This document shows positions 1 through 10,270 of a stretch of DNA of 48,442 nt, piece after piece (positions within the stretch are counted from its first letter, which is position 1; each line of letters starts with the position of its first letter). Below the pieces are notes generated by a model. That model had not been told where the DNA came from, made no database searches, and saw nothing but the letters and a program-made list of their open reading frames with translations. Position numbers and translations under genes: made by a program. The stretch covers positions 1-48,442 of IMG/VR virus record IMGVR_UViG_3300039208_000529, one strand, 5' to 3'. The stretch comes from a virus. Its lineage: Duplodnaviria; Heunggongvirae; Uroviricota; Caudoviricetes.

Positions 1-2
1 GT

Positions 3-38
3 TTCCCAGTCACGATCCTTTTAGGATCGGGTTGGGAA
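3..38 (+). terminator. Imperfect hairpin, possible terminator upstream of the first promoter
   Basis: TTCCCA..CGATCCT-TTT-AGGATCG..TGGGAA inverted repeat. Confidence 0.4.
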
Positions 39-48
39 TTTACGCTAG

Positions 49-76
49 TTGACAATTGCGAATCTTGCGATACTAT
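49..76 (+). promoter_or_regulatory. sigma70-type promoter, 16-bp spacer
   Basis: TTGACA(49-54)-N16-TACTAT(71-76). Confidence 0.75.
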
Positions 77-106
77 TTTGAGCCTGGAATCATTGAATGG
101 CGGCCG

Positions 107-322
107 ATGTCTAAACTGCGGGAGCATGATAACGTGAAATGTAATCGATGGTTTTTCCCTAAACACAATTGGGGGCAATGGGAAACAATAACCAAATATC
201 ATAAGGATAGCATTTCTATTTTTCATAATACCGTTGTCGGACGTAAGGATATCCTAATTCAGCGTAGGGTTTGCAAAGACTGTAATAAAATTCAGTTACA
301 AAAGATAGAGGTAGTAATTTGA
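107..322 (+). CDS. Hypothetical protein with H/CxxC zinc-ribbon-like motif
   Basis: ORF downstream of the promoter; KHNW...CKDC; start uncertain. Confidence 0.6.
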   Translation: MSKLREHDNVKCNRWFFPKHNWGQWETITKYHKDSISIFHNTVVGRKDILIQRRVCKDCNKIQLQKIEVVI

Positions 323-516
323 CTCCTGAGGAATTACAGCGTAGACTAGATGTAATGTCGGAAGGCAGAAAGGAATGGATCCGGAGAATGTGCCTATATC
401 TTTTGGCTGCAAAGAAAAAAGATTGGCCGAAGGCCAGGAAATGGGCTATGCTAGCGGACAGGCTTGATTCCTATAAAGCCGCTCGACGTTTGGCGGCTCG
501 GGGGTTTGAGATTTGA
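319..516 (+). CDS. Hypothetical protein
   Basis: Start/stop overlaps with both neighbours. Confidence 0.6.
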   Translation: MTPEELQRRLDVMSEGRKEWIRRMCLYLLAAKKKDWPKARKWAMLADRLDSYKAARRLAARGFEI

Positions 517-1022
517 ATCACGCCGAAAAAACTATCGAATATCTATCCGATGGGTACGGTAGCATTTTCCCATGTCGGAATGCCATTCTTTGTCATTTGT
601 TTTTTACAATTGGTAATGGCTACGAATGGGAAAACGGTAAGCTAGAAAACGTTTTCCCTGAGGAAGATAGAGACCGGTGGTTTCCCGAAGGAAGCGATCC
701 GGAATTCCATTATCGAATTGAAGCATTCGAAAAAGAATGGTATAAAAGCAATCCCTATACCAATTGGTATCCTATTTCGGAATATTCTCACATTTGTAAT
801 GTGCCCGAGAATGTAGCTCCCGAATGGTTGGCCATTTGTATTGAAGCTTGCAAAGAATATCTAAAAACTCCCGATGATGCTAAGAAAATGGGAGTATCAT
901 TTGATTATTCCGGGGGCGGAGAAAAACCTAGGCTATATATGGCTCCCTGGCGTAGTCATTCTGAACTAACAATGGACAAAGCTAGAGTGTTCGAAATTCT
1001 GCAAAATCTCTTGACACGATAG
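513..1022 (+). CDS. Hypothetical protein
   Basis: 169-aa ORF coupled to the upstream ORF. Confidence 0.7.
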   Translation: MNHAEKTIEYLSDGYGSIFPCRNAILCHLFFTIGNGYEWENGKLENVFPEEDRDRWFPEGSDPEFHYRIEAFEKEWYKSNPYTNWYPISEYSHICNVPENVAPEWLAICIEACKEYLKTPDDAKKMGVSFDYSGGGEKPRLYMAPWRSHSELTMDKARVFEILQNLLTR

Positions 1023-1038
1023 AAAATAAGAGTATCCT
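1011..1038 (+). promoter_or_regulatory. sigma70-type promoter, 16-bp spacer
   Basis: TTGACA-N16-TATCCT; ATG 8 nt downstream. Confidence 0.75.
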
Positions 1039-1046
1039 TTAGCATT

Positions 1047-1562
1047 ATGAAAGTTACTAAGCAAAGAGTAATGCAACGGGCCCGCGAAATTCGGTCTACT
1101 CTTATCGAGCAACATCCGGATCTAGCGGACAAGCTTCGGGGAATTTCCTTCAAGGTTTCCCACCGAATGACTCGGGCGGCCGGAATTGCTAAGCATAGGG
1201 ATCAATTGGTTACGCTTTCCTACCCATTTTTTGCCGATTCGGACAATTTCCAAAATGATTTCCACAATACGGTAACGCATGAAATTGCCCATCTCTTGGC
1301 CCCCTCTCTTCCGAGCTATGGAAAGCGTAGGAATCCGCACGGCCCCGAATGGCGAGCTATGCATCGGCGTCTAGGAGGGAATGGGCAACGTACCCATACG
1401 CTAGAATTGGCCGACGGCTTCAGGTCTCGACGGGATAAAGGTATGGAATTGCCTTGTTCGAACTGTAATAAGCCTATGAGGCTTGGCCCGACTCAAGCGA
1501 AAAGACATGTAGCCCTTATCATGCGGGGAGAAAAAGGCTATCGGCATCGGAAATGCCCTTGA
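1047..1562 (+). CDS. SprT-like zinc metalloprotease
   Basis: RMTRAAG, HEIAH (HExxH), HGPEW and a C-terminal CxxC match the SprT family pattern. Confidence 0.85.
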   Translation: MKVTKQRVMQRAREIRSTLIEQHPDLADKLRGISFKVSHRMTRAAGIAKHRDQLVTLSYPFFADSDNFQNDFHNTVTHEIAHLLAPSLPSYGKRRNPHGPEWRAMHRRLGGNGQRTHTLELADGFRSRRDKGMELPCSNCNKPMRLGPTQAKRHVALIMRGEKGYRHRKCP

Positions 1563-1586
1563 CTAATCCGCAATACGGTGTAGTAT
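1559..1586 (+). promoter_or_regulatory. sigma70-type promoter, 16-bp spacer
   Basis: TTGACT-N16-TAGTAT. Confidence 0.7.
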
Positions 1587-1595
1587 ATAGGTGCT

Positions 1596-1739
1596 ATGAG
1601 AATCCGAAGCTACAAAACAGAAAGTCCGGAGCAAATGATTCTCCGACTTTGGGAAGCTGGGTTTTCGGTTGGATTTATTCGGCTTAGGCTAGAAATGGTA
1701 AAGCATGGAAGTAATCAATACGGCGGAAGCTATTCGTAA
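1596..1739 (+). CDS. Small hypothetical protein (47 aa, not in ORF track)
   Basis: MRIRSYKTESPEQMILRLWEAG... directly after the promoter. Confidence 0.5.
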   Translation: MRIRSYKTESPEQMILRLWEAGFSVGFIRLRLEMVKHGSNQYGGSYS

Positions 1740-2034
1740 AATCTATCAGACTGCAAGCGGTCGGGTAGGTGAAGGTTACGGCGAAGTTTTTTCCGTCACT
1801 TTCAAGAAACGTAATTCTTGGGAAACAAGGGAAATGCGTTGCCGGCTTGGCTCCACTACCCGTAAGGGTATTGCGGGGGGTCAGGCTCGCTACAATCCTC
1901 AGTCCCATGGGCTAATTTGGGTCTACCTTATGGCGGGAGACGAAAACCGTAGCGATAGCAGAAATCGACGGTCTATTCCTGTCGAAGGAATTCGAAAGCT
2001 CGTAATCGGCGGGCGGGAGTTTATTGTAGAATGA
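1705..2034 (+). CDS. Phage protein, probable SH3/Sm-like (WYL_2-like) fold
   Basis: VFSVTFKKR...REMRCRLG...RRSIPVEGI pattern typical of this small phage family. Confidence 0.55.
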   Translation: MEVINTAEAIRKIYQTASGRVGEGYGEVFSVTFKKRNSWETREMRCRLGSTTRKGIAGGQARYNPQSHGLIWVYLMAGDENRSDSRNRRSIPVEGIRKLVIGGREFIVE

Positions 2035-2234
2035 AATTGAAGGATGCGGAAATTGGTTCTCCTCCGTACGAAATTTTAGAGGATGGCCGAGCTATTGTTA
2101 GGGTAAAAGTTTCTAGGGATATCCAAAAACTTTATCCCCGCATGATTCCCGTTTTTGTTTTCGAGGAATCCGCATTCGGATTTCTTGCTCCCTCGACTGA
2201 GGTTAGGAGAATTTCGAAGATTGTAATTGACTAG
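2031..2234 (+). CDS. Hypothetical protein
   Basis: ATGA overlap with the upstream ORF. Confidence 0.6.
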   Translation: MKLKDAEIGSPPYEILEDGRAIVRVKVSRDIQKLYPRMIPVFVFEESAFGFLAPSTEVRRISKIVID

Positions 2235-2254
2235 CACGCAAAGCGTGCTAGGAT
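2227..2254 (+). promoter_or_regulatory. sigma70-type promoter whose spacer is a perfect palindrome
   Basis: TTGACT-N16-TAGGAT; CTAGCACGC-AAA-GCGTGCTAG at 2231-2251. Confidence 0.65.
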
Positions 2255-2260
2255 ATAAGT

Positions 2261-2695
2261 AACCGAGGACGGCGAGCGATAACAGCCGTTGACAGCCTGT
2301 AAATAGAGGCATTTGGTAGCGGGAGATTAGTTTATAGTTCGGTGGAGCCGCTACAAAGCCGAACATTTTAGCACACTATTGGGGTGGAGCCCCGTAGTTG
2401 ACAGGAAGGGAATCAACCTGTATAAAGAAAAGTATTCCTAGCTCGTACTCAATTCCTAGTCTGACGTACGGCGAATATAATGACTAGGGGCAGGATCGGT
2501 GCCGTAAAGACCTTCCGGGGGGGAAACCGATAATAAACCGGATTTTTACTAATGCGTGCGGGCCCTATTTTTTTGCTTGACCTTTAGGGGACCCGCTAGG
2601 AGTTAGGAAACCTCCGAAAAGAATCAAAATCCACCGGGAAAACATTTCCAGCCTGTCGAACCGTGGGCAACCCGGACGGGGAGGGCTGGAAATAC
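2261..2695 (+). ncRNA. Candidate large structured non-coding RNA (~430 nt)
   Basis: Own promoter; no credible + strand ORF; many complementary helices including a pseudoknot (2312-2364), a loop-loop pairing (2467-2472/2501-2506) and GNRA loops. Confidence 0.6.
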
Positions 2696-2707
2696 CTACA
2701 ATTTTGC

Positions 2708-2735
2708 TTGACTCATAACAATATAGGGATATACT
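2708..2735 (+). promoter_or_regulatory. sigma70-type promoter, 16-bp spacer, probably leaderless transcript
   Basis: TTGACT-N16-TATACT; ATG 6 nt after the -10. Confidence 0.8.
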
Positions 2736-2741
2736 GTAAAT

Positions 2742-2960
2742 ATGAAAGCAAAAGTAATCGACAATGCGATTCCGATTATCAAATCGGGCGATGGGTTTTA
2801 CGGTCCTTATATCGCTATTCAAATTGTCAAAGGTAGTGCATACGAGGATATTCCTAAGGCTTTGGAATTCGAAGGTAGAGCCTGGGGACTATCCGGGTGG
2901 AGTAGTGACATCGGAGTAGCCGCCTACTCAATTGGTAAATCCGTTGCGATTCCGAAATGA
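2742..2960 (+). CDS. Hypothetical protein
   Basis: ORF immediately after the promoter. Confidence 0.7.
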   Translation: MKAKVIDNAIPIIKSGDGFYGPYIAIQIVKGSAYEDIPKALEFEGRAWGLSGWSSDIGVAAYSIGKSVAIPK

Positions 2961-3205
2961 ATCTATCTATTCAACAAATCGAAAAAATTCTCCGACAATA
3001 TTTTCCGGGGGAGGATTGGGATAGTGCTAGTCCGGAGCTAATGCGTCTATGCCTTGCGGAAAGGGCATTTCACGCATCCGAAATGCTTCGGGATAACCTT
3101 CAGCAGCAAATTATTTACACCGGAATTTTTTGCTGTTCAAATTGTGCAGTATATTATTCCGATTATGACCCTTCGGATATGTGTGCTAAGTGTCGCAATT
3201 GCTAA
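2957..3205 (+). CDS. Hypothetical protein with C-terminal CxxC...CxxC zinc ribbon
   Basis: CSNC...CAKC; overlaps both neighbours. Confidence 0.65.
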   Translation: MNLSIQQIEKILRQYFPGEDWDSASPELMRLCLAERAFHASEMLRDNLQQQIIYTGIFCCSNCAVYYSDYDPSDMCAKCRNC

Positions 3206-3897
3206 TGAATAATTCTCTGGTAGAAAAGGCAATGGGCCTAAAGGTTTCTGAGCTAGAGAAATTCGTAGGAGGATTGTCGAAACCTAGCAAAATGCCGGGT
3301 TACGCATATTTTACTCCGGCCGTGTCTTGCATGGTAGGCACGCTATTGAGCCGCGTAAAGGGTTCGGTTTGTGGGTCTTGCTATGCTAAAAAAGGCCGAT
3401 ACGTATTCCCTAACGTAATCCGGGCAATGGAGCGTAGACTAAAGGCTATCAAAAAGCCCGGATGGGCGGAATATATGGTAGCCTTGCTAAGAAAAAAATA
3501 TAGCAAATTGCCATTTGACAGAAGGGTTTTTAGGTGGCATGATTCGGGCGATATTCAAAGTTTCGAACATCTAAAAAGTATCATCGAAATTGCAAAAATG
3601 TTGCCGGAAATTCGTTTCTGGCTTCCGACCCGAGAATGGGCAATTATTAGGGATTATTTGGATTGCGGCGGAAATTTTATTCCGAATAACCTTGCAATCC
3701 GGCTTTCTACTGCTATGATTGGGCAACCGTATGAAGCGGTGCGTAACTATCAAGGTGCCCGGATTCAATGGTCTACCGTGGGATATGATGGCAAGGGGGC
3801 TTTTCAATGTCCTGCCTATTCCCAGGGTGGCAAGTGTGAAACCTGCCGGGCGTGCTGGGATACCTCAATTCATAGCGTAAACTATGCAAAACATTAG
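3205..3897 (+). CDS. Gp88-like phage protein (radical-SAM-related, Cys-rich)
   Basis: LSKPSKMPG, CxxG...CxxCYA, FRWHDSGD, FWLPTRE, CPA...CxxCRACW; start at the TAATG overlap. Confidence 0.8.
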   Translation: MNNSLVEKAMGLKVSELEKFVGGLSKPSKMPGYAYFTPAVSCMVGTLLSRVKGSVCGSCYAKKGRYVFPNVIRAMERRLKAIKKPGWAEYMVALLRKKYSKLPFDRRVFRWHDSGDIQSFEHLKSIIEIAKMLPEIRFWLPTREWAIIRDYLDCGGNFIPNNLAIRLSTAMIGQPYEAVRNYQGARIQWSTVGYDGKGAFQCPAYSQGGKCETCRACWDTSIHSVNYAKH

Positions 3898-3985
3898 AGA
3901 TATTCTTATCGCTATTCCGATCGCACTTTGTTTTCTGGTAGTTGTGTGCTCTATAGCATATCTTTGGTGCCTTATTTTATCATAG
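3884..3985 (+). CDS. Small membrane peptide (33 aa)
   Basis: MQNIRDILIAIPIALCFLVVVCSIAYLWCLILS, one hydrophobic helix. Confidence 0.4.
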   Translation: MQNIRDILIAIPIALCFLVVVCSIAYLWCLILS

Positions 3986-3991
3986 TTTCCC

Positions 3992-4019
3992 TTGACCTTT
4001 TCTATTTCCAGAGTATTCT
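3992..4019 (+). promoter_or_regulatory. sigma70-type promoter, 16-bp spacer containing ATTTCCAG
   Basis: TTGACC-N16-TATTCT. Confidence 0.7.
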
Positions 4020-4054
4020 ATAATTAGTAGAGCAAAGTAAGGCATTGCCGTTGC

Positions 4055-4103
4055 GGGCGGCCTAGAGTAAACTGCCCTAGTGAATCTAGGCTCGCCCTTT
4101 TTT
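4055..4103 (+). terminator. Intrinsic terminator or attenuator ending a ~80-nt transcript
   Basis: GGGCG-GCCTAGA...TCTAGGC-T-CGCCC followed by T6. Confidence 0.6.
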
Positions 4104-4114
4104 AGGTGTAACTT

Positions 4115-4279
4115 ATGTATCTAATCGAATATGCTTTGGACGATCAATCCAGCCCCGTGGTAAACGTGGTAACAGACTCCAAAAATCTCTATGGGATTTT
4201 GACTACCTATCCCGGCATGCTATATGTTTATTTGAAAGACATTGGTGGAAATGAACTAATGTCCTGGAAAAAGGAATAA
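4115..4279 (+). CDS. Small hypothetical protein (54 aa)
   Basis: AGGTG upstream of ATG; fills the gap. Confidence 0.5.
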   Translation: MYLIEYALDDQSSPVVNVVTDSKNLYGILTTYPGMLYVYLKDIGGNELMSWKKE

Positions 4280-4283
4280 GAAA

Positions 4284-4499
4284 ATGTATATCGTAGTCCA
4301 TATGGATAATGGTAATGTTCTCAAGGGAGGCGAAATTTCCGAGGAAAAACTAGGCAAGCAAGAATATTCTAGAAGGGTTGAGAATATCAACGAAATTCTA
4401 AGGAATCTAAAGAATCTAGAATATCTTACAATGCCTATTGGTGATACGGAAATTTTTCTCAACCCTGACAAAATCTCCTACGTCGAGCTTGTGAAGTGA
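4284..4499 (+). CDS. Hypothetical protein
   Basis: Tightly packed early ORF. Confidence 0.65.
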   Translation: MYIVVHMDNGNVLKGGEISEEKLGKQEYSRRVENINEILRNLKNLEYLTMPIGDTEIFLNPDKISYVELVK

Positions 4500-4693
4500 A
4501 AATTTTTCTTACCTCGATTGACGAATCTGAGCCGGATTGCCTTCGGGTTTCTTTTATCGGAGCAAAAGAATCAGATTCTAATTGCCAATGGCATATTTTA
4601 GTGTCATCCTGTCTAGGTACAGAGGAAAATAAAAAGCAAGCGGAAGAGCAGGCCCGTCAAAAATGGGGTAACCTAGAAATTGAGTGGGTATGA
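4496..4693 (+). CDS. Hypothetical protein
   Basis: GTGA overlap. Confidence 0.6.
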   Translation: MKIFLTSIDESEPDCLRVSFIGAKESDSNCQWHILVSSCLGTEENKKQAEEQARQKWGNLEIEWV

Positions 4694-4905
4694 AATTCTC
4701 AATTCAACATTTTGAACACGGACAATTGATCGAATGGAATGTGTCCAGGGCATGGTTTCCTGAATTGGGAGATATTATTGCCGTGCCTTTTCAAGGCAGA
4801 ATGAAAGCGGCTCGTATTATTGGAAGTGATAAAAATTGGGAAACTCCCATTATTTTCGTTCAATTTCTTAGCGAAGAAACTTGCAATAGCCTGGAAATGG
4901 AGTAG
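4690..4905 (+). CDS. Hypothetical protein
   Basis: ATGA overlap. Confidence 0.6.
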   Translation: MKFSIQHFEHGQLIEWNVSRAWFPELGDIIAVPFQGRMKAARIIGSDKNWETPIIFVQFLSEETCNSLEME

Positions 4906-4914
4906 AATACAGTT

Positions 4915-5106
4915 ATGATCGAAGTTTGGATTCCTAAACGGCGTTACCTTCATAACCTTTTCCCGTCCGATGGGAATGTCTGGGAACATTTGGACGAAAT
5001 CCAAAAAAAGCATCCTAGAGCCTATCTCGTCGAAGTGAAAGGCGGAAAGCGAGAGCGAATTAGTGCTAAGCTGTCAGCCGATCAAATTTCGGACGATGAA
5101 GTTTAG
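4915..5106 (+). CDS. Hypothetical protein
   Basis: Tightly packed early ORF. Confidence 0.55.
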   Translation: MIEVWIPKRRYLHNLFPSDGNVWEHLDEIQKKHPRAYLVEVKGGKRERISAKLSADQISDDEV

Positions 5107-5350
5107 TAAAAAAATAAGGAGTATCGCAAAATCTAAGGTACTAAAATTCCAAAATGTCCGATATTGTGCGTATCTAACGCCAATTGAAACCCTATATCTA
5201 ATTTCTATAGGGTGCATCCCGGAGCGGGATGATATGGAGGAAATGCAATTGGTGGCAAAACGCAACGGAGATTGTTGGGCATCCTGGATTTATTTTGACA
5301 AGGTGACATTTCCAGTAGATAAAACTTGGGAATCAAAATATGGAATTTAG
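5096..5350 (+). CDS. Hypothetical protein
   Basis: Tightly packed early ORF; ATG at 5096. Confidence 0.55.
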   Translation: MKFSKKIRSIAKSKVLKFQNVRYCAYLTPIETLYLISIGCIPERDDMEEMQLVAKRNGDCWASWIYFDKVTFPVDKTWESKYGI

Positions 5351-5591
5351 ATTTTATTCGCTAGAGGAAATTGCCGAATTCGTAAGAGAATGTCCGGCTG
5401 TCCAACCCAATGTTCCAATCGCAACCGAGCCGGTTGTGGGATCTATTTCGGCGGCTGATTTTGCCTCTGCCCTGGCTGAGATTGTTCGATTGCATAACTG
5501 TAAAATTATGGCAATCAAGCTTTATCGCCAGCATACTGGGGCTAGCTTGAAAGTCGCGAAAGACGCTATCGAAGGGGCCAGCCGCCAGTAA
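5340..5591 (+). CDS. Ribosomal protein bL12 (L7/L12) C-terminal-domain-like protein
   Basis: KIMAIKLYRQHTGASLKVAKDAIE matches the bL12 CTD motif KIxVIKxVRxxTGLGLKEAKxxVE. Confidence 0.75.
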   Translation: MEFRFYSLEEIAEFVRECPAVQPNVPIATEPVVGSISAADFASALAEIVRLHNCKIMAIKLYRQHTGASLKVAKDAIEGASRQ

Positions 5592-5601
5592 GGAAGATAA
5601 A

Positions 5602-5814
5602 GTGTTATATCTAATTATTTGGGCGATTGGTTTTATCCTCGTATTTCCAGTTTCGGCATGGATTATCCTGTCGGAGGAATACTACAGGAATAAAAACTAT
5701 GGTAGTATGCGTGATATCGTAACCATGATTGCCGCCGGTTTCATTGTGGGACTTTTCTGGCCGTGGACGATTACGTTTATGATCCTGGAAAAGATTAGGC
5801 CAAAATACTTGTGA
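5602..5814 (+). CDS. Small membrane protein (two TM helices)
   Basis: Two hydrophobic segments; FWP motif. Confidence 0.65.
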   Translation: MLYLIIWAIGFILVFPVSAWIILSEEYYRNKNYGSMRDIVTMIAAGFIVGLFWPWTITFMILEKIRPKYL

Positions 5815-6116
5815 AAAAAATTGCATATGTAATTCGTGATTCTGGGATCGATGGGCGGTCCGCATATAAAACCGTAAAGGCTTTTTGGAATGAGTCCGAA
5901 CGGGATAAGGCTTATGAGTCTGACCCGAATAAAAACTATTACCGAAAGGCCGAAGTTATTGTCGATCTCAAGTCTCATTCTGAGACCATCCTAAGGAAGC
6001 TCGACGGTCTAGATAAGTTGGTTTTGGGACTCTCTGATAGTGCTGTATTTTGTTGTGAGTGCGAGTCGGAGCTAGAGTGTCCGACTTGTTCTAGGCTGCA
6101 AAATACTGTAAAATAG
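5811..6116 (+). CDS. Hypothetical protein with C-terminal zinc ribbon
   Basis: CCEC...CPTC. Confidence 0.65.
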   Translation: MKKIAYVIRDSGIDGRSAYKTVKAFWNESERDKAYESDPNKNYYRKAEVIVDLKSHSETILRKLDGLDKLVLGLSDSAVFCCECESELECPTCSRLQNTVK

Positions 6117-6157
6117 ATATAGGACAGTAAGTAGCAGACTGTAAACTATTTCCAGCT

Positions 6158-6319
6158 ATGTATACCATCCTTATACAGAACAATAAAGGACAGTGGGTAA
6201 GTGATGGGCGGTTTCATGCGGTCGAGGCGGATGCCGTAAGGTGGGCAGGGAAACAGGGTTATGGGCGTTTCTTTGTGGCGGCACTAAAATTTAGTGGTGA
6301 TATTCGGATTTTGTCTTGA
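6158..6319 (+). CDS. Small hypothetical protein (53 aa)
   Basis: MYTILIQNNKGQW... fills the gap. Confidence 0.5.
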   Translation: MYTILIQNNKGQWVSDGRFHAVEADAVRWAGKQGYGRFFVAALKFSGDIRILS

Positions 6320-6362
6320 TTCGGCACCAATAACACACTACTCTAATAACAGATAAAAACTA

Positions 6363-6554
6363 ATGACCACCCAAGAGCTAATCGACGCTTTGAAGCGAGC
6401 CGATCCTACCGGCAAGCTATACGTTATGATTTATGTCGATAGTTCCTCAGACGTTGCCTTCCATCCTAGCGAGCCCTATATGGGGGAGGATGAAAGCGAC
6501 AATTCTCGTAAATGGGTAGTTATTCCTACTGGGGGATTTTGGGAATTAGGCTGA
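6363..6554 (+). CDS. Hypothetical protein
   Basis: MTTQELIDAL start common in small phage proteins. Confidence 0.65.
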   Translation: MTTQELIDALKRADPTGKLYVMIYVDSSSDVAFHPSEPYMGEDESDNSRKWVVIPTGGFWELG

Positions 6555-6556
6555 AA

Positions 6557-6715
6557 ATGAAGGGGAAAACAAGTCTCGGCTTGGATAAAGCCGATATTAT
6601 TAGGCTTTTGAAGAATTTTGGCGTACATATCCCTATAAACTATGATTCGGCGAGAGTTTTCGTGAGGTTCCAGGGATCTACGCATGAAATAGAGGAATCT
6701 AGCGGTATGCTTTGA
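6557..6715 (+). CDS. Hypothetical protein
   Basis: ATG at 6557 just after the previous stop. Confidence 0.5.
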   Translation: MKGKTSLGLDKADIIRLLKNFGVHIPINYDSARVFVRFQGSTHEIEESSGML

Positions 6716-6739
6716 CAAACCCATTTCCAGGGTTATAAT
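6712..6739 (+). promoter_or_regulatory. Consensus sigma70 promoter, 16-bp spacer containing ATTTCCAG
   Basis: TTGACA-N16-TATAAT. Confidence 0.85.
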
Positions 6740-6896
6740 CCTAATGCATCGAGAGGATAAAAACAATGGGAAGCGAACAGTGCAACGAAGTGATTCGGGG
6801 CAGTATCGGTAAGTTTTTTGCCTACTTAGGGCTTTATGTCCTACTGCCCATTTGGTTGGTAATTCTTTACTGTCTGATTTTTTGAGGAAATATAGA

Positions 6897-7094
6897 ATGT
6901 TTATCACATATACTTCCGATGATGAGGTAATTATCACAACGGAAGGTCGGGACGAAGAAAAAATGTTGCGAGAATATTTCCAAAAAGGCGGACGGGATTT
7001 GGAACGTTACGAACGGGAAGAGTATTTCAATTGTGCCGTTTCTGTGCGGTTTAGTTGTGAATTACTACCGGGGGTATATCCCGAGACAGAATAG
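6897..7094 (+). CDS. Hypothetical protein
   Basis: ORF, ATG at 6897. Confidence 0.55.
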   Translation: MFITYTSDDEVIITTEGRDEEKMLREYFQKGGRDLERYEREEYFNCAVSVRFSCELLPGVYPETE

Positions 7095-7179
7095 CTAAAT
7101 AGATAAAAGCTAGAAATAAAATAATAAGTAGCTACAAAAAGAGCGGCCCGAATGCAAATATTCGAGTCGCTCAATTTTT

Positions 7180-7400
7180 GAAAAGTGTCCAAATTTTGCT
7201 ATTACTATAAAAATGGGTCTCCCCCTGCCCCCTAACATGCCCCTAACGTTACGAAACCGTAACATGGAAGATTTTTCCGTACCGATTCCGTAACGGAAAT
7301 CCTGTCCGTTCAAAAATCTCGACGGAAGTATTTTCCGCCCCGAAAAATTTTCACTATGGCATAACCCAAAGCCTACCACACCGAACGCCAAAAGAAAAAA
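7180..7400. repeat. Non-coding cluster of short direct and inverted repeats
   Basis: TGCCCC(C)TAAC x2, GTTACG-AAAC-CGTAAC, TTCCGT-A-ACGGAA, CGGAAG-TAT-TTTCCG. Confidence 0.55.
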
Positions 7401-7410
7401 TATTTTCGAT

Positions 7411-7438
7411 TTGACTATTTCCAGCCCGTGTGTATAAT
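7411..7438 (+). promoter_or_regulatory. sigma70-type promoter (extended -10), 16-bp spacer containing ATTTCCAG
   Basis: TTGACT-N16-TATAAT with TGTG before the -10. Confidence 0.85.
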
Positions 7439-7465
7439 TGGGCAGCCTAGAGAAAGGGGCAGGAA

Positions 7466-7558
7466 ATGAGACACTGCAAATGCAAACACTGCGGAGCCGA
7501 CATCTACGATTTCCAAATCCGTTGTATCTGTGGGCAGCCGGTCGAAGGGGCTATCTAG
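7466..7558 (+). CDS. 30-aa zinc-ribbon peptide
   Basis: MRHCKCKHCGADIYDFQIRCICGQPVEGAI; purine-rich RBS upstream. Confidence 0.5.
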   Translation: MRHCKCKHCGADIYDFQIRCICGQPVEGAI

Positions 7559-7568
7559 AAAATTCGGC

Positions 7569-7596
7569 TTGACAGAATCCAAGTAACGGGTATACT
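7569..7596 (+). promoter_or_regulatory. sigma70-type promoter, 16-bp spacer, probably leaderless
   Basis: TTGACA-N16-TATACT; ATG 5 nt after the -10. Confidence 0.85.
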
Positions 7597-7601
7597 GGAG
7601 C

Positions 7602-7760
7602 ATGAAAGAGGAAACCGAATTCGGGCCCGCCTACTGGCCCTCCCTACTACTGGAAGAGATCAAGACGGCCCGCGAGGAAGCAGCCGAACGGCACCGGGAG
7701 CTTATGGAGGATCTCCGAAGCTTCGGATACTTCAGGGGCGAGGAATACTACAATGCCTAA
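7602..7760 (+). CDS. Small hypothetical protein (52 aa)
   Basis: Starts at the predicted TSS; overlaps the next ORF. Confidence 0.55.
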   Translation: MKEETEFGPAYWPSLLLEEIKTAREEAAERHRELMEDLRSFGYFRGEEYYNA

Positions 7761-8082
7761 ATTTCGCATCAAGCGGAGAGATGAAAATAACTGGGTCATT
7801 GAGAGATGGCAAAGCGGGGGCATCATTTCTCGGGGCCGCTACGCTGGCCAGCAAAAAAAGGAAAAATGGGACGAAATCAACCCGGTAGGGTACTTCCCAT
7901 CCCTGGCCCATGCCGCCCGCCGGTTGCTAGATGAGGAACTAGCAGCCGAATGGCCGGAAGAGGGCTGGACCGGTGCCGATCTCCTGGAGGCCCTCAAGGC
8001 GGCCGAAGCCCGAGTCCTGGAAGCCGTGAAAGCCGTTCCGGCAGTCGCAATTTACACCGAGGAAGGTCGAAAAGACCTCTAG
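7753..8082 (+). CDS. Hypothetical protein
   Basis: 109-aa ORF; GYFPSL motif seen in small phage proteins. Confidence 0.7.
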   Translation: MPKFRIKRRDENNWVIERWQSGGIISRGRYAGQQKKEKWDEINPVGYFPSLAHAARRLLDEELAAEWPEEGWTGADLLEALKAAEARVLEAVKAVPAVAIYTEEGRKDL

Positions 8083-8115
8083 TCTTGCTGGCGGATTGTC
8101 GATAATCATAGTACC

Positions 8116-8250
8116 ATGAAAGAAACAATCCAAACGCTCACCTACCATGCCCGTCAAAACGCTTTCGCCCTGTTCCTCGTGGGATTCGTCGGGGCAGTCG
8201 GTTTCGGACTCTTCGCTCTTTTCAACATGTTGCAAAGCTTCCAGGGGTAA
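8116..8250 (+). CDS. Small membrane peptide (44 aa)
   Basis: AFALFLVGFVGAVGFGLFALF hydrophobic segment. Confidence 0.5.
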   Translation: MKETIQTLTYHARQNAFALFLVGFVGAVGFGLFALFNMLQSFQG

Positions 8251-8252
8251 CA

Positions 8253-8480
8253 ATGGAAACGGAAGAGCCGGCCGAATCCGGCCGCGTCAGTCTCCAAGAA
8301 TTCGCTAAGGTCTTAGGAAAAATCGCGAAGGAGCTAAAGGCAATTCGCACCAAGGGAACCACCAAAAAACAAGCGGTCGAGCATTTGATGCGAGCGGCCG
8401 ACTATTTCGAGCCTGGCGGGGAAATCCGTACCGCCCTAGAAAAGGAAGCCTCCCAATGGAGAGATGGACTCCCGAGCTAG
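8253..8480 (+). CDS. Hypothetical protein
   Basis: Packed ORF. Confidence 0.6.
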   Translation: METEEPAESGRVSLQEFAKVLGKIAKELKAIRTKGTTKKQAVEHLMRAADYFEPGGEIRTALEKEASQWRDGLPS

Positions 8481-9001
8481 AGACTAAGGTCCGCACGGGT
8501 ACGGACGCTAGAAAGGGTTCCTCCTGCTACTTCGTACCGGTCTCCGAAACCATGGGGCTCAAGCTCTACGCTACCGCCCAAGAACGGGACGCATCATACG
8601 TAGCCCAATCCATCGTAGCGGAGCACGGTTTGGCCCCGGACGTAGGAGAATGCGTAGACCTCAAGGGCTTGCAGATTCCCTCCGGTTCGGCCCCGAATTG
8701 GTGGCATCCAAGGTACAAAGAGAAAACCCCACTAGTCATGTATGGGTTTCTCACGGAAAAAGTAAAGACGAATCCAGGCTACAATCCTTCAGCGGAAATC
8801 GATTTGAGAGATAGCCTAACGGCAATCCTCGACCTACCTTGGAATTTCTGCGATCTCTACGGAGATAACATAGGGGAGAAAAACGGCCGCCCGGTTTGCG
8901 TCGATCTCGATCCGCGATTCTGCGATCTCTTGAGCGACGCGGACTATGAGGTAATCGAACCCTTCTACGAATATCAGTATAGGATGGACGCGGGGCTATG
9001 A
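8456..9001 (+). CDS. Protein-kinase-like (PKL fold) protein
   Basis: GSSCYF Gly-loop-like segment, GLKLY (catalytic Lys), DLYGDNIG catalytic loop (DLxxxN), VCVDLD (DFG equivalent). Confidence 0.65.
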   Translation: MERWTPELETKVRTGTDARKGSSCYFVPVSETMGLKLYATAQERDASYVAQSIVAEHGLAPDVGECVDLKGLQIPSGSAPNWWHPRYKEKTPLVMYGFLTEKVKTNPGYNPSAEIDLRDSLTAILDLPWNFCDLYGDNIGEKNGRPVCVDLDPRFCDLLSDADYEVIEPFYEYQYRMDAGL

Positions 9002-9363
9002 CCTACACACGTAAACAGTATTTGGCTGGAGAATGCTCCCATCGGGAATACTACAGCCAATTCGTAGCAGAGGAAGTAAAGAACCGCGTACATACGTACA
9101 TCGGAGTAAGCCGCCTATTGGCGTCCACCGATAAGCACTTGAACGATATTCCCTTGAATTTATGGGATCGTCTCGGTGCCGTGGGATCTAAGGCTCGATG
9201 GGACGCGGCGGGGGACTACCCCACGGCCGCCGGTCGAGTCTGTATCTATAAGGAAGCAGCCCGGCAAATCGTCGAGGAAAACCGTAATTCCCTATTGCTC
9301 GCCCGCCCGTATGCCGATACACTAGTAGGCAGGGGCGAGAGCCCCACGGAACAAAGGGACTAA
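8998..9363 (+). CDS. Hypothetical protein
   Basis: ATGA overlap; HREYYSQFV...LNDIPLxxWD. Confidence 0.7.
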   Translation: MTYTRKQYLAGECSHREYYSQFVAEEVKNRVHTYIGVSRLLASTDKHLNDIPLNLWDRLGAVGSKARWDAAGDYPTAAGRVCIYKEAARQIVEENRNSLLLARPYADTLVGRGESPTEQRD

Positions 9364-9366
9364 CCA

Positions 9367-9594
9367 ATGAACGCAAGAATTCTAGTCAAGGGCTCGGCCT
9401 TGGATGCGGTAGCGGCTTGTATGTCGCGAGGTATCCACGCCGACCATATCAAGGAAGAGCGAGAGTCCGAAACGCTCTTGGATGTTACAGGCCCTGCGAG
9501 TACCATTGTCCGATGGTATTTGAAGGATACGATTCCCGCTCCTGAAGGAGGCTACCCGATCGGTACACTACTGTTCTATCGCGACCGAAACTAG
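9367..9594 (+). CDS. Hypothetical protein
   Basis: Last ORF of the + strand early block. Confidence 0.65.
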   Translation: MNARILVKGSALDAVAACMSRGIHADHIKEERESETLLDVTGPASTIVRWYLKDTIPAPEGGYPIGTLLFYRDRN

Positions 9595-9690
9595 GGGGGC
9601 GGGGTTTTTTCATTCTGCCGTTTTGGCAGGGTGGAATGCCCCCCGGCGGGTACCTCAAAATCACCGCAACCCCATTTATTGTCAAAGAGC
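9594..9690. other. GC-rich structured junction between convergent gene blocks
   Basis: GGGGGC...GCCCCC flanking CATTCTGCC-GTTTT-GGCAGGGTG; strand and composition change here. Confidence 0.5.
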
Positions 9691-9920
9691 TACTCAGATA
9701 TTTGTCTGTTCGGCAGAGGCTGTGGTCTGTAATTTAACTTCACCCAAAAGTATTCATTCCACAAAGAAGAATACATATACTCCTCTTCAACAATTCCTCT
9801 TTCAAAACATCGAGTAGTTCCATCACTAAACCGTCTCGGCCACCAATAGAACCTTACTTTGGTTCGTCTAGTTCCAACTAATTCTTTTTTATTATCTCTT
9901 AAAATCATTGCAACAGCCAA
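9690..9920 (-). CDS. Hypothetical protein (probable paralog of 10248-10475)
   Basis: GTRRTKVRFYWWP vs GSKRVTKEFAWLP. Confidence 0.6.
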   Translation of the reverse strand: MAVAMILRDNKKELVGTRRTKVRFYWWPRRFSDGTTRCFERGIVEEEYMYSSLWNEYFWVKLNYRPQPLPNRQISE

Positions 9921-10270
9921 ATTCCCTCGTTAATAAACGATTCAACTTCATCTAAGGTCCATCTTGCCCAGCGTTTTACTCCTGTATCTACATGAGTATA
10001 TTCTGCTGTTCGTTTTTCTCCGTTCCAAAAGATGCGATACAACCCGCAATCAGACATAAAACAAAGATTGTTGGTTAACTTCGCGTCCAACGGGATTATT
10101 GGGGGAGCCCAATCAAGACACGGCTTCAGCTGCATAGCCGGCGAGGGCGAGGGTGGTGCTGGCGGCTCAACCGGAGCCGCAGGCTCCGCATAAGTGTTTA
10201 TAACTTCGTCGAGCGAAGATCGACGAGGGAACTTTCGGCATTTCCACCTATGTATTAGCTTCCCGATCAA
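9905..10270 (-). CDS. Hypothetical protein with Pro-rich linker
   Basis: Packed minus-strand ORF. Confidence 0.6.
   Translation of the reverse strand: MIGKLIHRWKCRKFPRRSSLDEVINTYAEPAAPVEPPAPPSPSPAMQLKPCLDWAPPIIPLDAKLTNNLCFMSDCGLYRIFWNGEKRTAEYTHVDTGVKRWARWTLDEVESFINEGIWLLQ

Follow-up and report, generated by a model that had tools for sequence, protein, structure and literature searches.

The early regions of phages abound in non-coding stretches that lack an explanation; the best-studied example is the Pleft RNA of mycobacteriophages L5 and D29. We investigated one such stretch, an open reading frame (ORF)-free gap at positions 2235-2741 in an uncultured tailed phage, and asked whether it encodes a structured RNA and, if so, in which of its parts. 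The phage was recovered from an aquatic metagenome (IMG/VR virus record IMGVR_UViG_3300039208_000529; 177,556 bases, 89% complete, no end repeats found) and encodes a large terminase and a portal; the window analyzed here is the first 48 kb of this record (48,442 nucleotides (nt)). An initial annotation, made from the letters alone, had proposed that the space between promoters at 2227 and 2708 gives rise to a pseudoknot-rich RNA of about 430 nt. Judged by sequence comparison, the gap is real and non-coding, and the evidence of function is confined to its last ~200 bases, a four-helix module common to one distant relative. This module is a candidate for a new, two-member RNA family of a known kind of element.

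A non-coding gap with a conserved 3' module

Between the two sigma-70-like sites at 2227 and 2708, there is no plus-strand ORF of at least 40 amino acids (aa) under translation table 11, and all three plus-strand frames contain many stops. Because the genome carries a tRNA with the anticodon CUA, we also examined recoded readings (TAG=Q and TGA=W), under which nothing credible opens, the frames that appear overlapping real flanking genes. The proposal that the gap has no credible sense ORF was thus borne out under all three readings. Nor did we find a terminator-like site in 2235-2741, that is, a GC-rich hairpin followed by a U-tract of the kind that bounds a small RNA gene.

The 3' part of the gap has a single detectable homologue, in the related phage G010 (IMGVR_UViG_3300038492_000258). 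Window positions 2523-2701 align with it at an nhmmer E-value of 6.6e-8 (7.1e-7 when full genomes were searched), and weaker similarity reaches back to about 2500. Detection required profile-based searching: BLAST, run with the gap on 11 related genomes, returned nothing and missed the G010 copy; likewise, MAFFT aligned the module wrongly in its 5' half, and nhmmer and covariance model (CM) alignments were used instead. The two phages are not closely related, their large terminases (TerL) being 64% identical and the proteins of a shared early gene, which occupies 3190-3897 in the window and belongs to Pfam family GP88 (98.6 bits), only 49% identical.

Against this background of divergence, we slid 200-nt windows over the early regions and compared them with G010 using nhmmer. 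Within the fast-evolving first 12 kb, detectable similarity persists in three segments only: the module, the GP88 gene and 7901-8100. Of these, the module alone is non-coding. Its score (28.6 bits per 200-nt window) is comparable to that of the GP88 gene (28.9-31.3 bits). Preservation of a non-coding segment as well as that of a gene whose product has diverged to 49% identity indicates that the module is under selection. The pattern of change is that of non-coding sequence by every measure we applied: mismatches between the two copies are spread evenly over codon phases (16/17/15), gap lengths are 1, 1, 1, 2, 11 and 18, and we found neither an open frame, nor 3-periodic substitution, nor indels held to multiples of three.

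The two copies have different neighbors. In G010, an 11/12 consensus promoter (TTGACT-16-TATAAT) ends ~8 nt before the start of homology, with its TATAAT 20 nt upstream of the first helix (P1), and the module is followed by a Shine-Dalgarno sequence (SD; AGGAAAU) and a 75-aa ORF, with no promoter or terminator in between; this ORF has no relative in the window phage. The G010 module lies just after the GP88 gene, whereas in the window it lies before that gene, with two small genes in between, and the flanking genes differ. Different neighbors, together with the promoter attached to the G010 copy, suggest that the module behaves as a movable promoter-plus-RNA cassette shuffled among early genes. 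Such a unit has no fixed downstream gene, which speaks against a gene-specific riboswitch.

Four proposed helices and invariant single-stranded blocks

The alignment of the two copies alternates invariant blocks with stems that are spelled in different letters, and four helices (P1-P4) are common to both (Table 1). P1-P3 are short hairpins, and P4 is an irregular hairpin of ~20 base pairs (bp). Three of the helices had been proposed in the initial annotation (TCCGG/CCGGA, GCGGG-CCCT/AGGG-CCCGC and ATTTCCAGCC/GGCTGGAAAT), and the GGAG/CTCC hairpin is added here. The invariant blocks are AUUUUUA..UGCGU, GCUAGG, GAAUCAAAA..CACC, AUUUCC, GAACCG, CGGGGAG and GGAAAUACCUAC. Those read as single-stranded connections between the helices are AUUUUUA..UGCGU, GCUAGG, GAAUCAAAA..CACC, GAACCG, CGGGGAG and ACCUAC.

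Table 1. Coordinates of the features discussed. Positions refer to the window unless another phage or locus is named.
Feature	Position	Strand	Description
Upstream early promoter-like site	2227..2254	+	TTGACT-16-TAGGAT with TG (extended -10); expected start near 2261
Inverted repeat, perfect, 9 bp	2231..2251		CTAGCACGC-AAA-GCGTGCTAG, read from the sequence
5' segment of gap	2261..2499	+	Lineage-specific; holds the first six helices proposed initially; no homologue; fold at chance level
Internal promoter-like site	2398..2426	+	TTGACA-17-TATAAA
Perfect TATAAT box	2476..2481	+	33 nt upstream of P1; weak -35 TTCCTA, 17-nt spacer
Conserved RNA module (putative)	2500..2701	+	Counterpart in G010 at 106559-106740, minus strand
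P1 hairpin	2514..2542	+	TCCGG (2514-2518)/CCGGA (2538-2542), 19-nt loop
Linker J1/2, single-stranded	2543..2557	+	(A)UUUUUA-N-U..UGCGU
P2	2558..2596	+	GCGGG (2558-2562)/CCCGC (2592-2596); G010 GCCGG/UCGGC, 11-nt loop
P3 hairpin	2599..2615	+	GGAG (2599-2602)/CUCC (2612-2615), 9-nt loop; G010 GGGG/CCCC, 8-nt loop
Linker J3/4, single-stranded	2616..2643	+	Invariant GAAUCAAAA and CACC blocks
P4 irregular hairpin	2644..2693	+	AUUUCC/GGAAAU (invariant), AGCCU/GGGCU, UC/GA, CCG/CGG, variable tip
Invariant 3' tail	2694..2699	+	ACCUAC; no U-tract terminator after the tail in either phage
Downstream promoter	2708..2735	+	TTGACT-16-TATACT
GP88-family gene, Roseobacter CRP phages	55-1500, or last 700 bases		
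GP88-family gene, Acinetobacter AM24-like phages	2.7-3.7 kb		
GP88-family gene, G009	4 kb		
tRNA-like gene, L041	5132-5323	+	
tRNA-like gene, L040	about 5455-5645	+	
tRNA-like gene, L034	about 567-737	-	
Promoter-ATG start, L034	about 7606-7643		Reverse complement
Promoter-ATG start, L041	5866-5900		

At the position of P1, G010 has a 7-bp stem of unrelated sequence (GGGUUUC/GAAACCC), directly before the invariant AUUUUUA, so that in the structure-guided alignment made by hand five pairs are changed on both sides. P2 is 100% paired in the CM alignment, with one double change and one change from G-C to G-U; its inner CCCT/AGGG extension and 19-nt U-rich loop exist in the window copy only. P3, which is preceded by the invariant GCUAGG, is likewise 100% paired, with one double change from A-U to G-C. 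In P4, three pairs are all replaced in G010 (C-G to G-C, C-G to U-A and U-G to C-G), and the tip is GGG-CAA-CCC in the window and a longer GGCUAUAGCC hairpin in G010; in the CM alignment, where P4 is represented by helices 4 and 5, these are 92% and 100% paired, with two double changes, two G-U changes and two pairs open in G010.

We built a CM using only the window copy with its proposed structure; it recovers the G010 copy with a score of 50.6 bits (E 1e-11), and its alignment of P2-P4 agrees with the one made by hand. In the CM alignment, 91.7% of the cells pair, compared with 27-58% when the partners are slid, and double-sided changes number 5 compared with 0-1, a comparison that involves two sequences only. 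In the alignment by hand, 16 pairs are identical in the two copies, 9 differ on both sides and 3 on one, and 2 are broken, being open in G010. The RNAalifold consensus energy, set against column-shuffled alignments, gives z-scores of -8.3 (by hand), -6.1 (P2-P4 only) and -4.9 (unedited nhmmer alignment), and none of 300 shuffles reached the observed energy for either the hand-made or the unedited nhmmer alignment. With two copies, the compensatory covariation is suggestive, not proven. On the reverse complement, the consensus fold is weaker (z -3.5 compared with -4.9), and three pairs are G-U on the plus strand, which would place the RNA, if real, on the strand of the promoters. A pseudoknot scan of the unpaired conserved columns found nothing except a pairing of a U-run with an A-run, without covariation.

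The 5' part of the gap

The initial annotation extended the proposed RNA over the whole gap and described it as densely paired. Every complementary segment it listed does lie where it was placed, although GTTCGGT/GCCGAAC and CTAT/GTAG are G-U-containing or imperfect and not exact complements. Nevertheless, when the minimum free energy of single sequences was compared with that of dinucleotide shuffles, the whole stretch (2255-2700, 446 nt) folded no better than the shuffles (z -0.87 on the plus and -0.90 on the minus strand), as did its 5' part (2261-2512, 252 nt; z -0.34) and 2433-2512 (z +0.62), so that dense pairing as a property of the whole gap did not hold up. The only individually notable hairpins are the first (2261-2310, z -2.36) and the last (2640-2701, z -2.68). 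Exact inverted repeats of at least 7 nt within 80 nt number 7 compared with 1.7 expected, and four of the seven come from one 10-bp stem (2644/2684).

The description as a pseudoknot-rich RNA of 430 nt fared no better. An H-type fold can be drawn at 2312-2364, yet the region around it (2305-2370) stays within the range of shuffles (z -1.40), and the homologue covers only the 3' ~200 nt, in which no pseudoknot is conserved. The 5' part (2255-2525) has no relative by nhmmer or six-frame tblastx among 12 genomes, or by nhmmer among 80 further loci. The helices proposed there, including the H-type pseudoknot and the loop-loop pairing of TACGGC with GCCGTA, have no homologue for comparison and are not energetically unusual. 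Comparison with homologues thus supports shared helices in the 3' part, through one homologue, and offers nothing for the 5' part. We infer that the 5' 240 nt (2261-2499) form a lineage-specific leader, and we treat them as lying outside the conserved RNA.

The gap contains four promoter-like sites in ~500 nt, and all such sites in the region face the same way. A first promoter scan missed the one at 2398 since it demanded a T at position 6 of the -10 box. Given that the sites at 2398 and 2476 lie inside the RNA as initially proposed, several 5' ends may exist, and a single 430-nt species is not the sole possibility. The inverted repeat at 2231-2251 takes up the spacer of the promoter at 2227 and overlaps a stop codon, that of a 67-aa gene (2031-2234); it may be an operator or a hairpin. 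At the other end of the gap, only 6 nt separate the -10 box of the 2708 promoter from the ATG at 2742, and the 72-aa gene that starts there (2742-2960) is therefore probably leaderless; the arrangement is the same in the homologue of this gene in the relative G001.

Searches for known families, further copies and partners

None of the 4227 models of Rfam 15, which include transfer-messenger RNA (tmRNA), RNase P, signal recognition particle (SRP) RNA, 6S RNA, riboswitches, self-cleaving ribozymes, group I and II introns and pRNA, matched anywhere in the window at gathering thresholds. With E-values up to 10 allowed, the only match in 2150-2800 was Yar_1 on the minus strand, at a noise-level 12 bits; in the loci of eight relatives, Rfam found tRNAs only. 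As ARAGORN also found no tRNA or tmRNA in the window, the initial annotation, which had recognized no hallmarks of tmRNA, RNase P, SRP or introns, was sustained on this point, and a non-coding, promoter-proximal early RNA outside the known families is the best reading. The functions suggested with it, a decoy, an antitoxin mimic or a ribozyme, are none of them favored: we saw neither ToxI-like repeats nor a match to any self-cleaving ribozyme family in Rfam.

Further copies were sought widely. BLAST of 1-8000 against INPHARED phages found none, and in the phage's own genome the module has no paralogue. Apart from the copy in G010, none was found by nhmmer with single-sequence and two-sequence profiles in 12 full genomes or by two CMs (R1 and R3) over 13-16 related records, and nhmmer and CMs over 80 GP88-anchored IMG/VR loci likewise found no further copy. 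Three motif scans of IMG/VR viral contigs returned no further copy, and scans of JGI metagenome contigs and of 185,579 prokaryote genomes yielded 12 matches each, all of them due to chance (by CM for the former).

Searches for a partner were equally negative. By phylogenetic profile, the genes common only to the window phage and G010 encode a sulfotransferase, a VWA protein, a MazG-like protein, a HAD protein, a MoxR-like AAA protein and DUF2201, none of which is RNA-related, and a search of both genomes for complements of the invariant blocks, as possible targets, gave nothing notable. The idea of a CsrA-type GGA loop was rejected, as GGA is found in P3 of the window copy and not in that of G010.

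A leader-derived RNA or another kind of element

The reading that we rank first, and to which we give about an even chance, is that of a stable RNA derived from an early leader that acts through its invariant loops. The last ~200 nt (about 2500-2701) would constitute a self-contained four-helix RNA module that moves with its own promoter as a cassette. Host RNA polymerase would probably make this RNA in quantity early in infection; it would probably persist as a stable leader-derived small RNA, like the L5 Pleft leader RNA; and it would probably act as RNA, in trans, its invariant unpaired blocks binding a host or phage factor.

Several observations weigh against this reading. With two copies only, covariation cannot reach significance of the R-scape type; the kept-versus-broken counts for P2-P4 alone give a p of ~0.05-0.1 by a rough binomial estimate, and P1 is not recovered by the CM alignment. 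The folds of the single copies are not strikingly stable (z -0.70 in the window and -2.37 in G010). No terminator or defined 3' end is visible in either phage, and the G010 module leads directly into a ribosome-binding site and the 75-aa ORF, an arrangement with which a purely cis-acting leader is equally compatible. Among sequencing runs, the stretch was found in two probable source DNA samples only and in no RNA run. Finally, the analogy with L5, discussed below, is positional only.

The strongest alternative, possible though on the whole unlikely, is such a purely cis-acting 5' leader, which would govern how the next gene is translated, bring about processive antitermination as HK022 put does, or, as in the T7 early leader, provide an RNase III/E site for processing or stability. 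Apart from the missing terminators and the uninterrupted run into the SD and ATG of the next ORF in G010, it would account for the P4 5' strand AUUUCC, which could pair either with its GGAAAU partner or with the same-lettered SD in G010, and for the size of P4, which is that of an RNase III substrate. However, the two phages have unrelated genes downstream of the module; the window has a promoter of its own between the module and the next gene, which is apparently leaderless and has no SD to sequester; and the long invariant unpaired blocks exceed what a processing hairpin needs.

We regard as improbable a functional element at the DNA level, either a cluster of operators to which an early regulator binds or a site for replication or packaging close to the genome end. 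The window copy holds a palindrome of the GGAAR-N3-5-TTTCC type, GGGAAAACATTTCC (2636-2649), promoter-like sites are crowded within the gap, and the region lies near the probable physical genome end. However, the G010 copy reads AGCATAAATTTCC here and does not preserve the palindrome; there are no iterons or repeats within the module, the position of which relative to genes and promoters differs between the phages; and the base changes preserve pairing, including G-U pairs possible on the plus strand only, on which the consensus fold is also stronger.

It is similarly improbable that the module has no function and represents a recently exchanged patch of DNA that is drifting neutrally and contains chance hairpins. 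The early regions of these phages are mosaic, and the small number of copies and the unremarkable fold of the window copy would fit; yet, at ~65% identity, 7 of the 9 changed pairs in P2-P4 still pair, invariant blocks of 6-12 nt alternate with fully replaced stems, preservation equals that of the adjacent protein gene, and no column shuffle attained the consensus energy. A tiny leader peptide regulated by the RNA structure (11 codons, ATG 2553, M-R-A-G-P..., stop 2586; 9 codons in G010, starting with TTG, M-R-A-G-P...) is very improbable. Although its first five codons differ at third positions only, one inserted base in a GGGCCC run, which encodes Gly-Pro in two frames, accounts for this pattern too; the start codon differs between the copies, an SD is missing from both, and the sequences diverge completely past residue 5 without overall codon periodicity.

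If the module is a real RNA, it would be a second, unrelated example in the same position as the Pleft RNA, preceding an early operon of the GP88 family close to a genome end, and its small, well-delimited fold and mutable invariant blocks would make the role of early leader RNAs more tractable. If it is not, the gap amounts to a common kind of mosaic intergenic DNA in which promoters cluster.

Relation to known phage RNAs

The closest parallel is with the cluster A mycobacteriophages L5, D29 and StarStuff (Dedrick et al. 2017, PMC5712189). In L5, Pleft lies at the genome end and is followed by ~500 nt without ORFs and then by genes 89 and 88; its RNA, the most abundant phage transcript, is stable, toxic to the host when expressed, lacks a canonical terminator and is processed into species of 100-500 nt with a common 5' end (PMC5712189). 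L5 gp88 is the namesake of Pfam GP88 (PF17338), scoring 192 bits. The window thus shares with L5 a promoter, an ORF-free leader of ~500 nt, a small gene or two and a GP88-family gene, in this order, near the genome end and without a canonical terminator.

The differences, however, are substantial. A module CM (R3, filters off) run on L5 50300-52297 gave best scores below 0 bits, and the GP88 proteins of the window and L5 align weakly (BLASTP E 2e-4). L5 is a 52-kb temperate siphovirus, whereas the window belongs to an uncultured aquatic phage of ~180 kb, and the hosts are far apart. Moreover, the module follows the GP88 gene in G010 and does not precede it. As there is no detectable similarity of sequence or structure to the L5 leader, the relation is one of analogy and not of membership. 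A bolder extension of the favored reading, which we consider doubtful, is that the module pair founds a new class of phage early RNAs, a mobile cassette acting in trans on a host factor during takeover as the counterpart of the toxic Pleft RNA, and part of a widespread, sequence-diverse strategy of early leader RNAs tied to GP88-family operons.

Other phage RNAs resemble the module less. Like phi29 pRNA (RF00044), it would be a structured RNA (~170 nt in phi29) with an early promoter near a genome end; however, it has no Rfam match, and the phage has a conventional large terminase and portal, with which a pRNA-dependent motor is not expected. The species 1 and 2 RNAs of T4 (rnaC/rnaD) are short, folded, non-coding RNAs without assigned function that are processed from a tRNA cluster transcript. 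They resemble the module as short, folded, non-coding units standing separately among early or tRNA-region genes, and differ in that the window contains no tRNA and the tRNAs of this genome lie 140 kb from the gap. The put RNA of HK022 is an antiterminator of ~70 nt with two hairpins, and the R sites of T7 are single RNase III hairpins in the early leader. These, too, are structured sense-strand RNAs without a coding role, located between early promoters and the first early genes; the module differs from them in its size (~200 nt), its four helices and its long invariant unpaired blocks.

Genomic setting and other features of the early region

In window positions 1-10000, we found 15 sigma-70-like promoter sites (pattern TTGACN-16/18-TAnnnT) on the plus strand and none on the minus strand, and these first 10 kb are packed with small plus-strand genes. 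By these signs, they are the early region, read rightwards. The array of host-type promoters is unusually dense.

IMG/VR holds 13 large related contigs, none of them close (TerL 57-64% identical), and the best relative of the window GP88-family protein, among 5.8 billion proteins, is 58% identical. In a complete relative with terminal repeats (G009), 4 kb separate the GP88-family gene from the end, so the start of the window is probably near the physical left end of the genome. Unrelated phages, too, tend to carry their GP88-family genes no more than a few kb from a genome end (Table 1), which suggests a conserved gene of the first early operon. Protein searches registered ~3000 other GP88-bearing contigs or proteins. 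Shortly upstream of the GP88 gene, 4 of 8 relatives have ORF-poor gaps of ~290-575 nt, the sequences of which are unrelated.

A second ORF-poor stretch in the window (7095-7600) contains near-consensus promoters at 7411 and 7569; the adjoining 7901-8100, inside an ORF (7753-8082), is the only part that aligns to G010. Three copies of the GGAAR-N3-5-TTTCC palindrome lie at 7262-7345, upstream of these strong promoters, and similar repeats occur upstream of GP88 in G001 (L034) and G003 (L037), making the palindromes candidate operators of a regulator. Early genes in this phage group often begin 6-7 nt past the -10 box of a consensus promoter and lack an SD (e.g., TATACT-GTAAAT-ATG at 2730-2744; further cases in Table 1), which suggests leaderless early mRNAs.

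The tRNA with anticodon CUA, of the amber-reading suppressor type and labeled 'Pyl' by ARAGORN, is present in both module-bearing phages: at 152892-152967 of the window phage (G000:C1), outside the window, and at G010:126818-126894. In total, the window phage has 10 tRNA genes and G010 has 28. Near the GP88 gene, the relatives G011 (L041), G006 (L040) and G001 (L034) carry tRNA-like genes in which a normal acceptor and T arm accompany an insertion of ~120-140 nt. ARAGORN calls none of the three; the one at L041 is spanned over 192 nt by the Rfam tRNA model at 34.7 bits.

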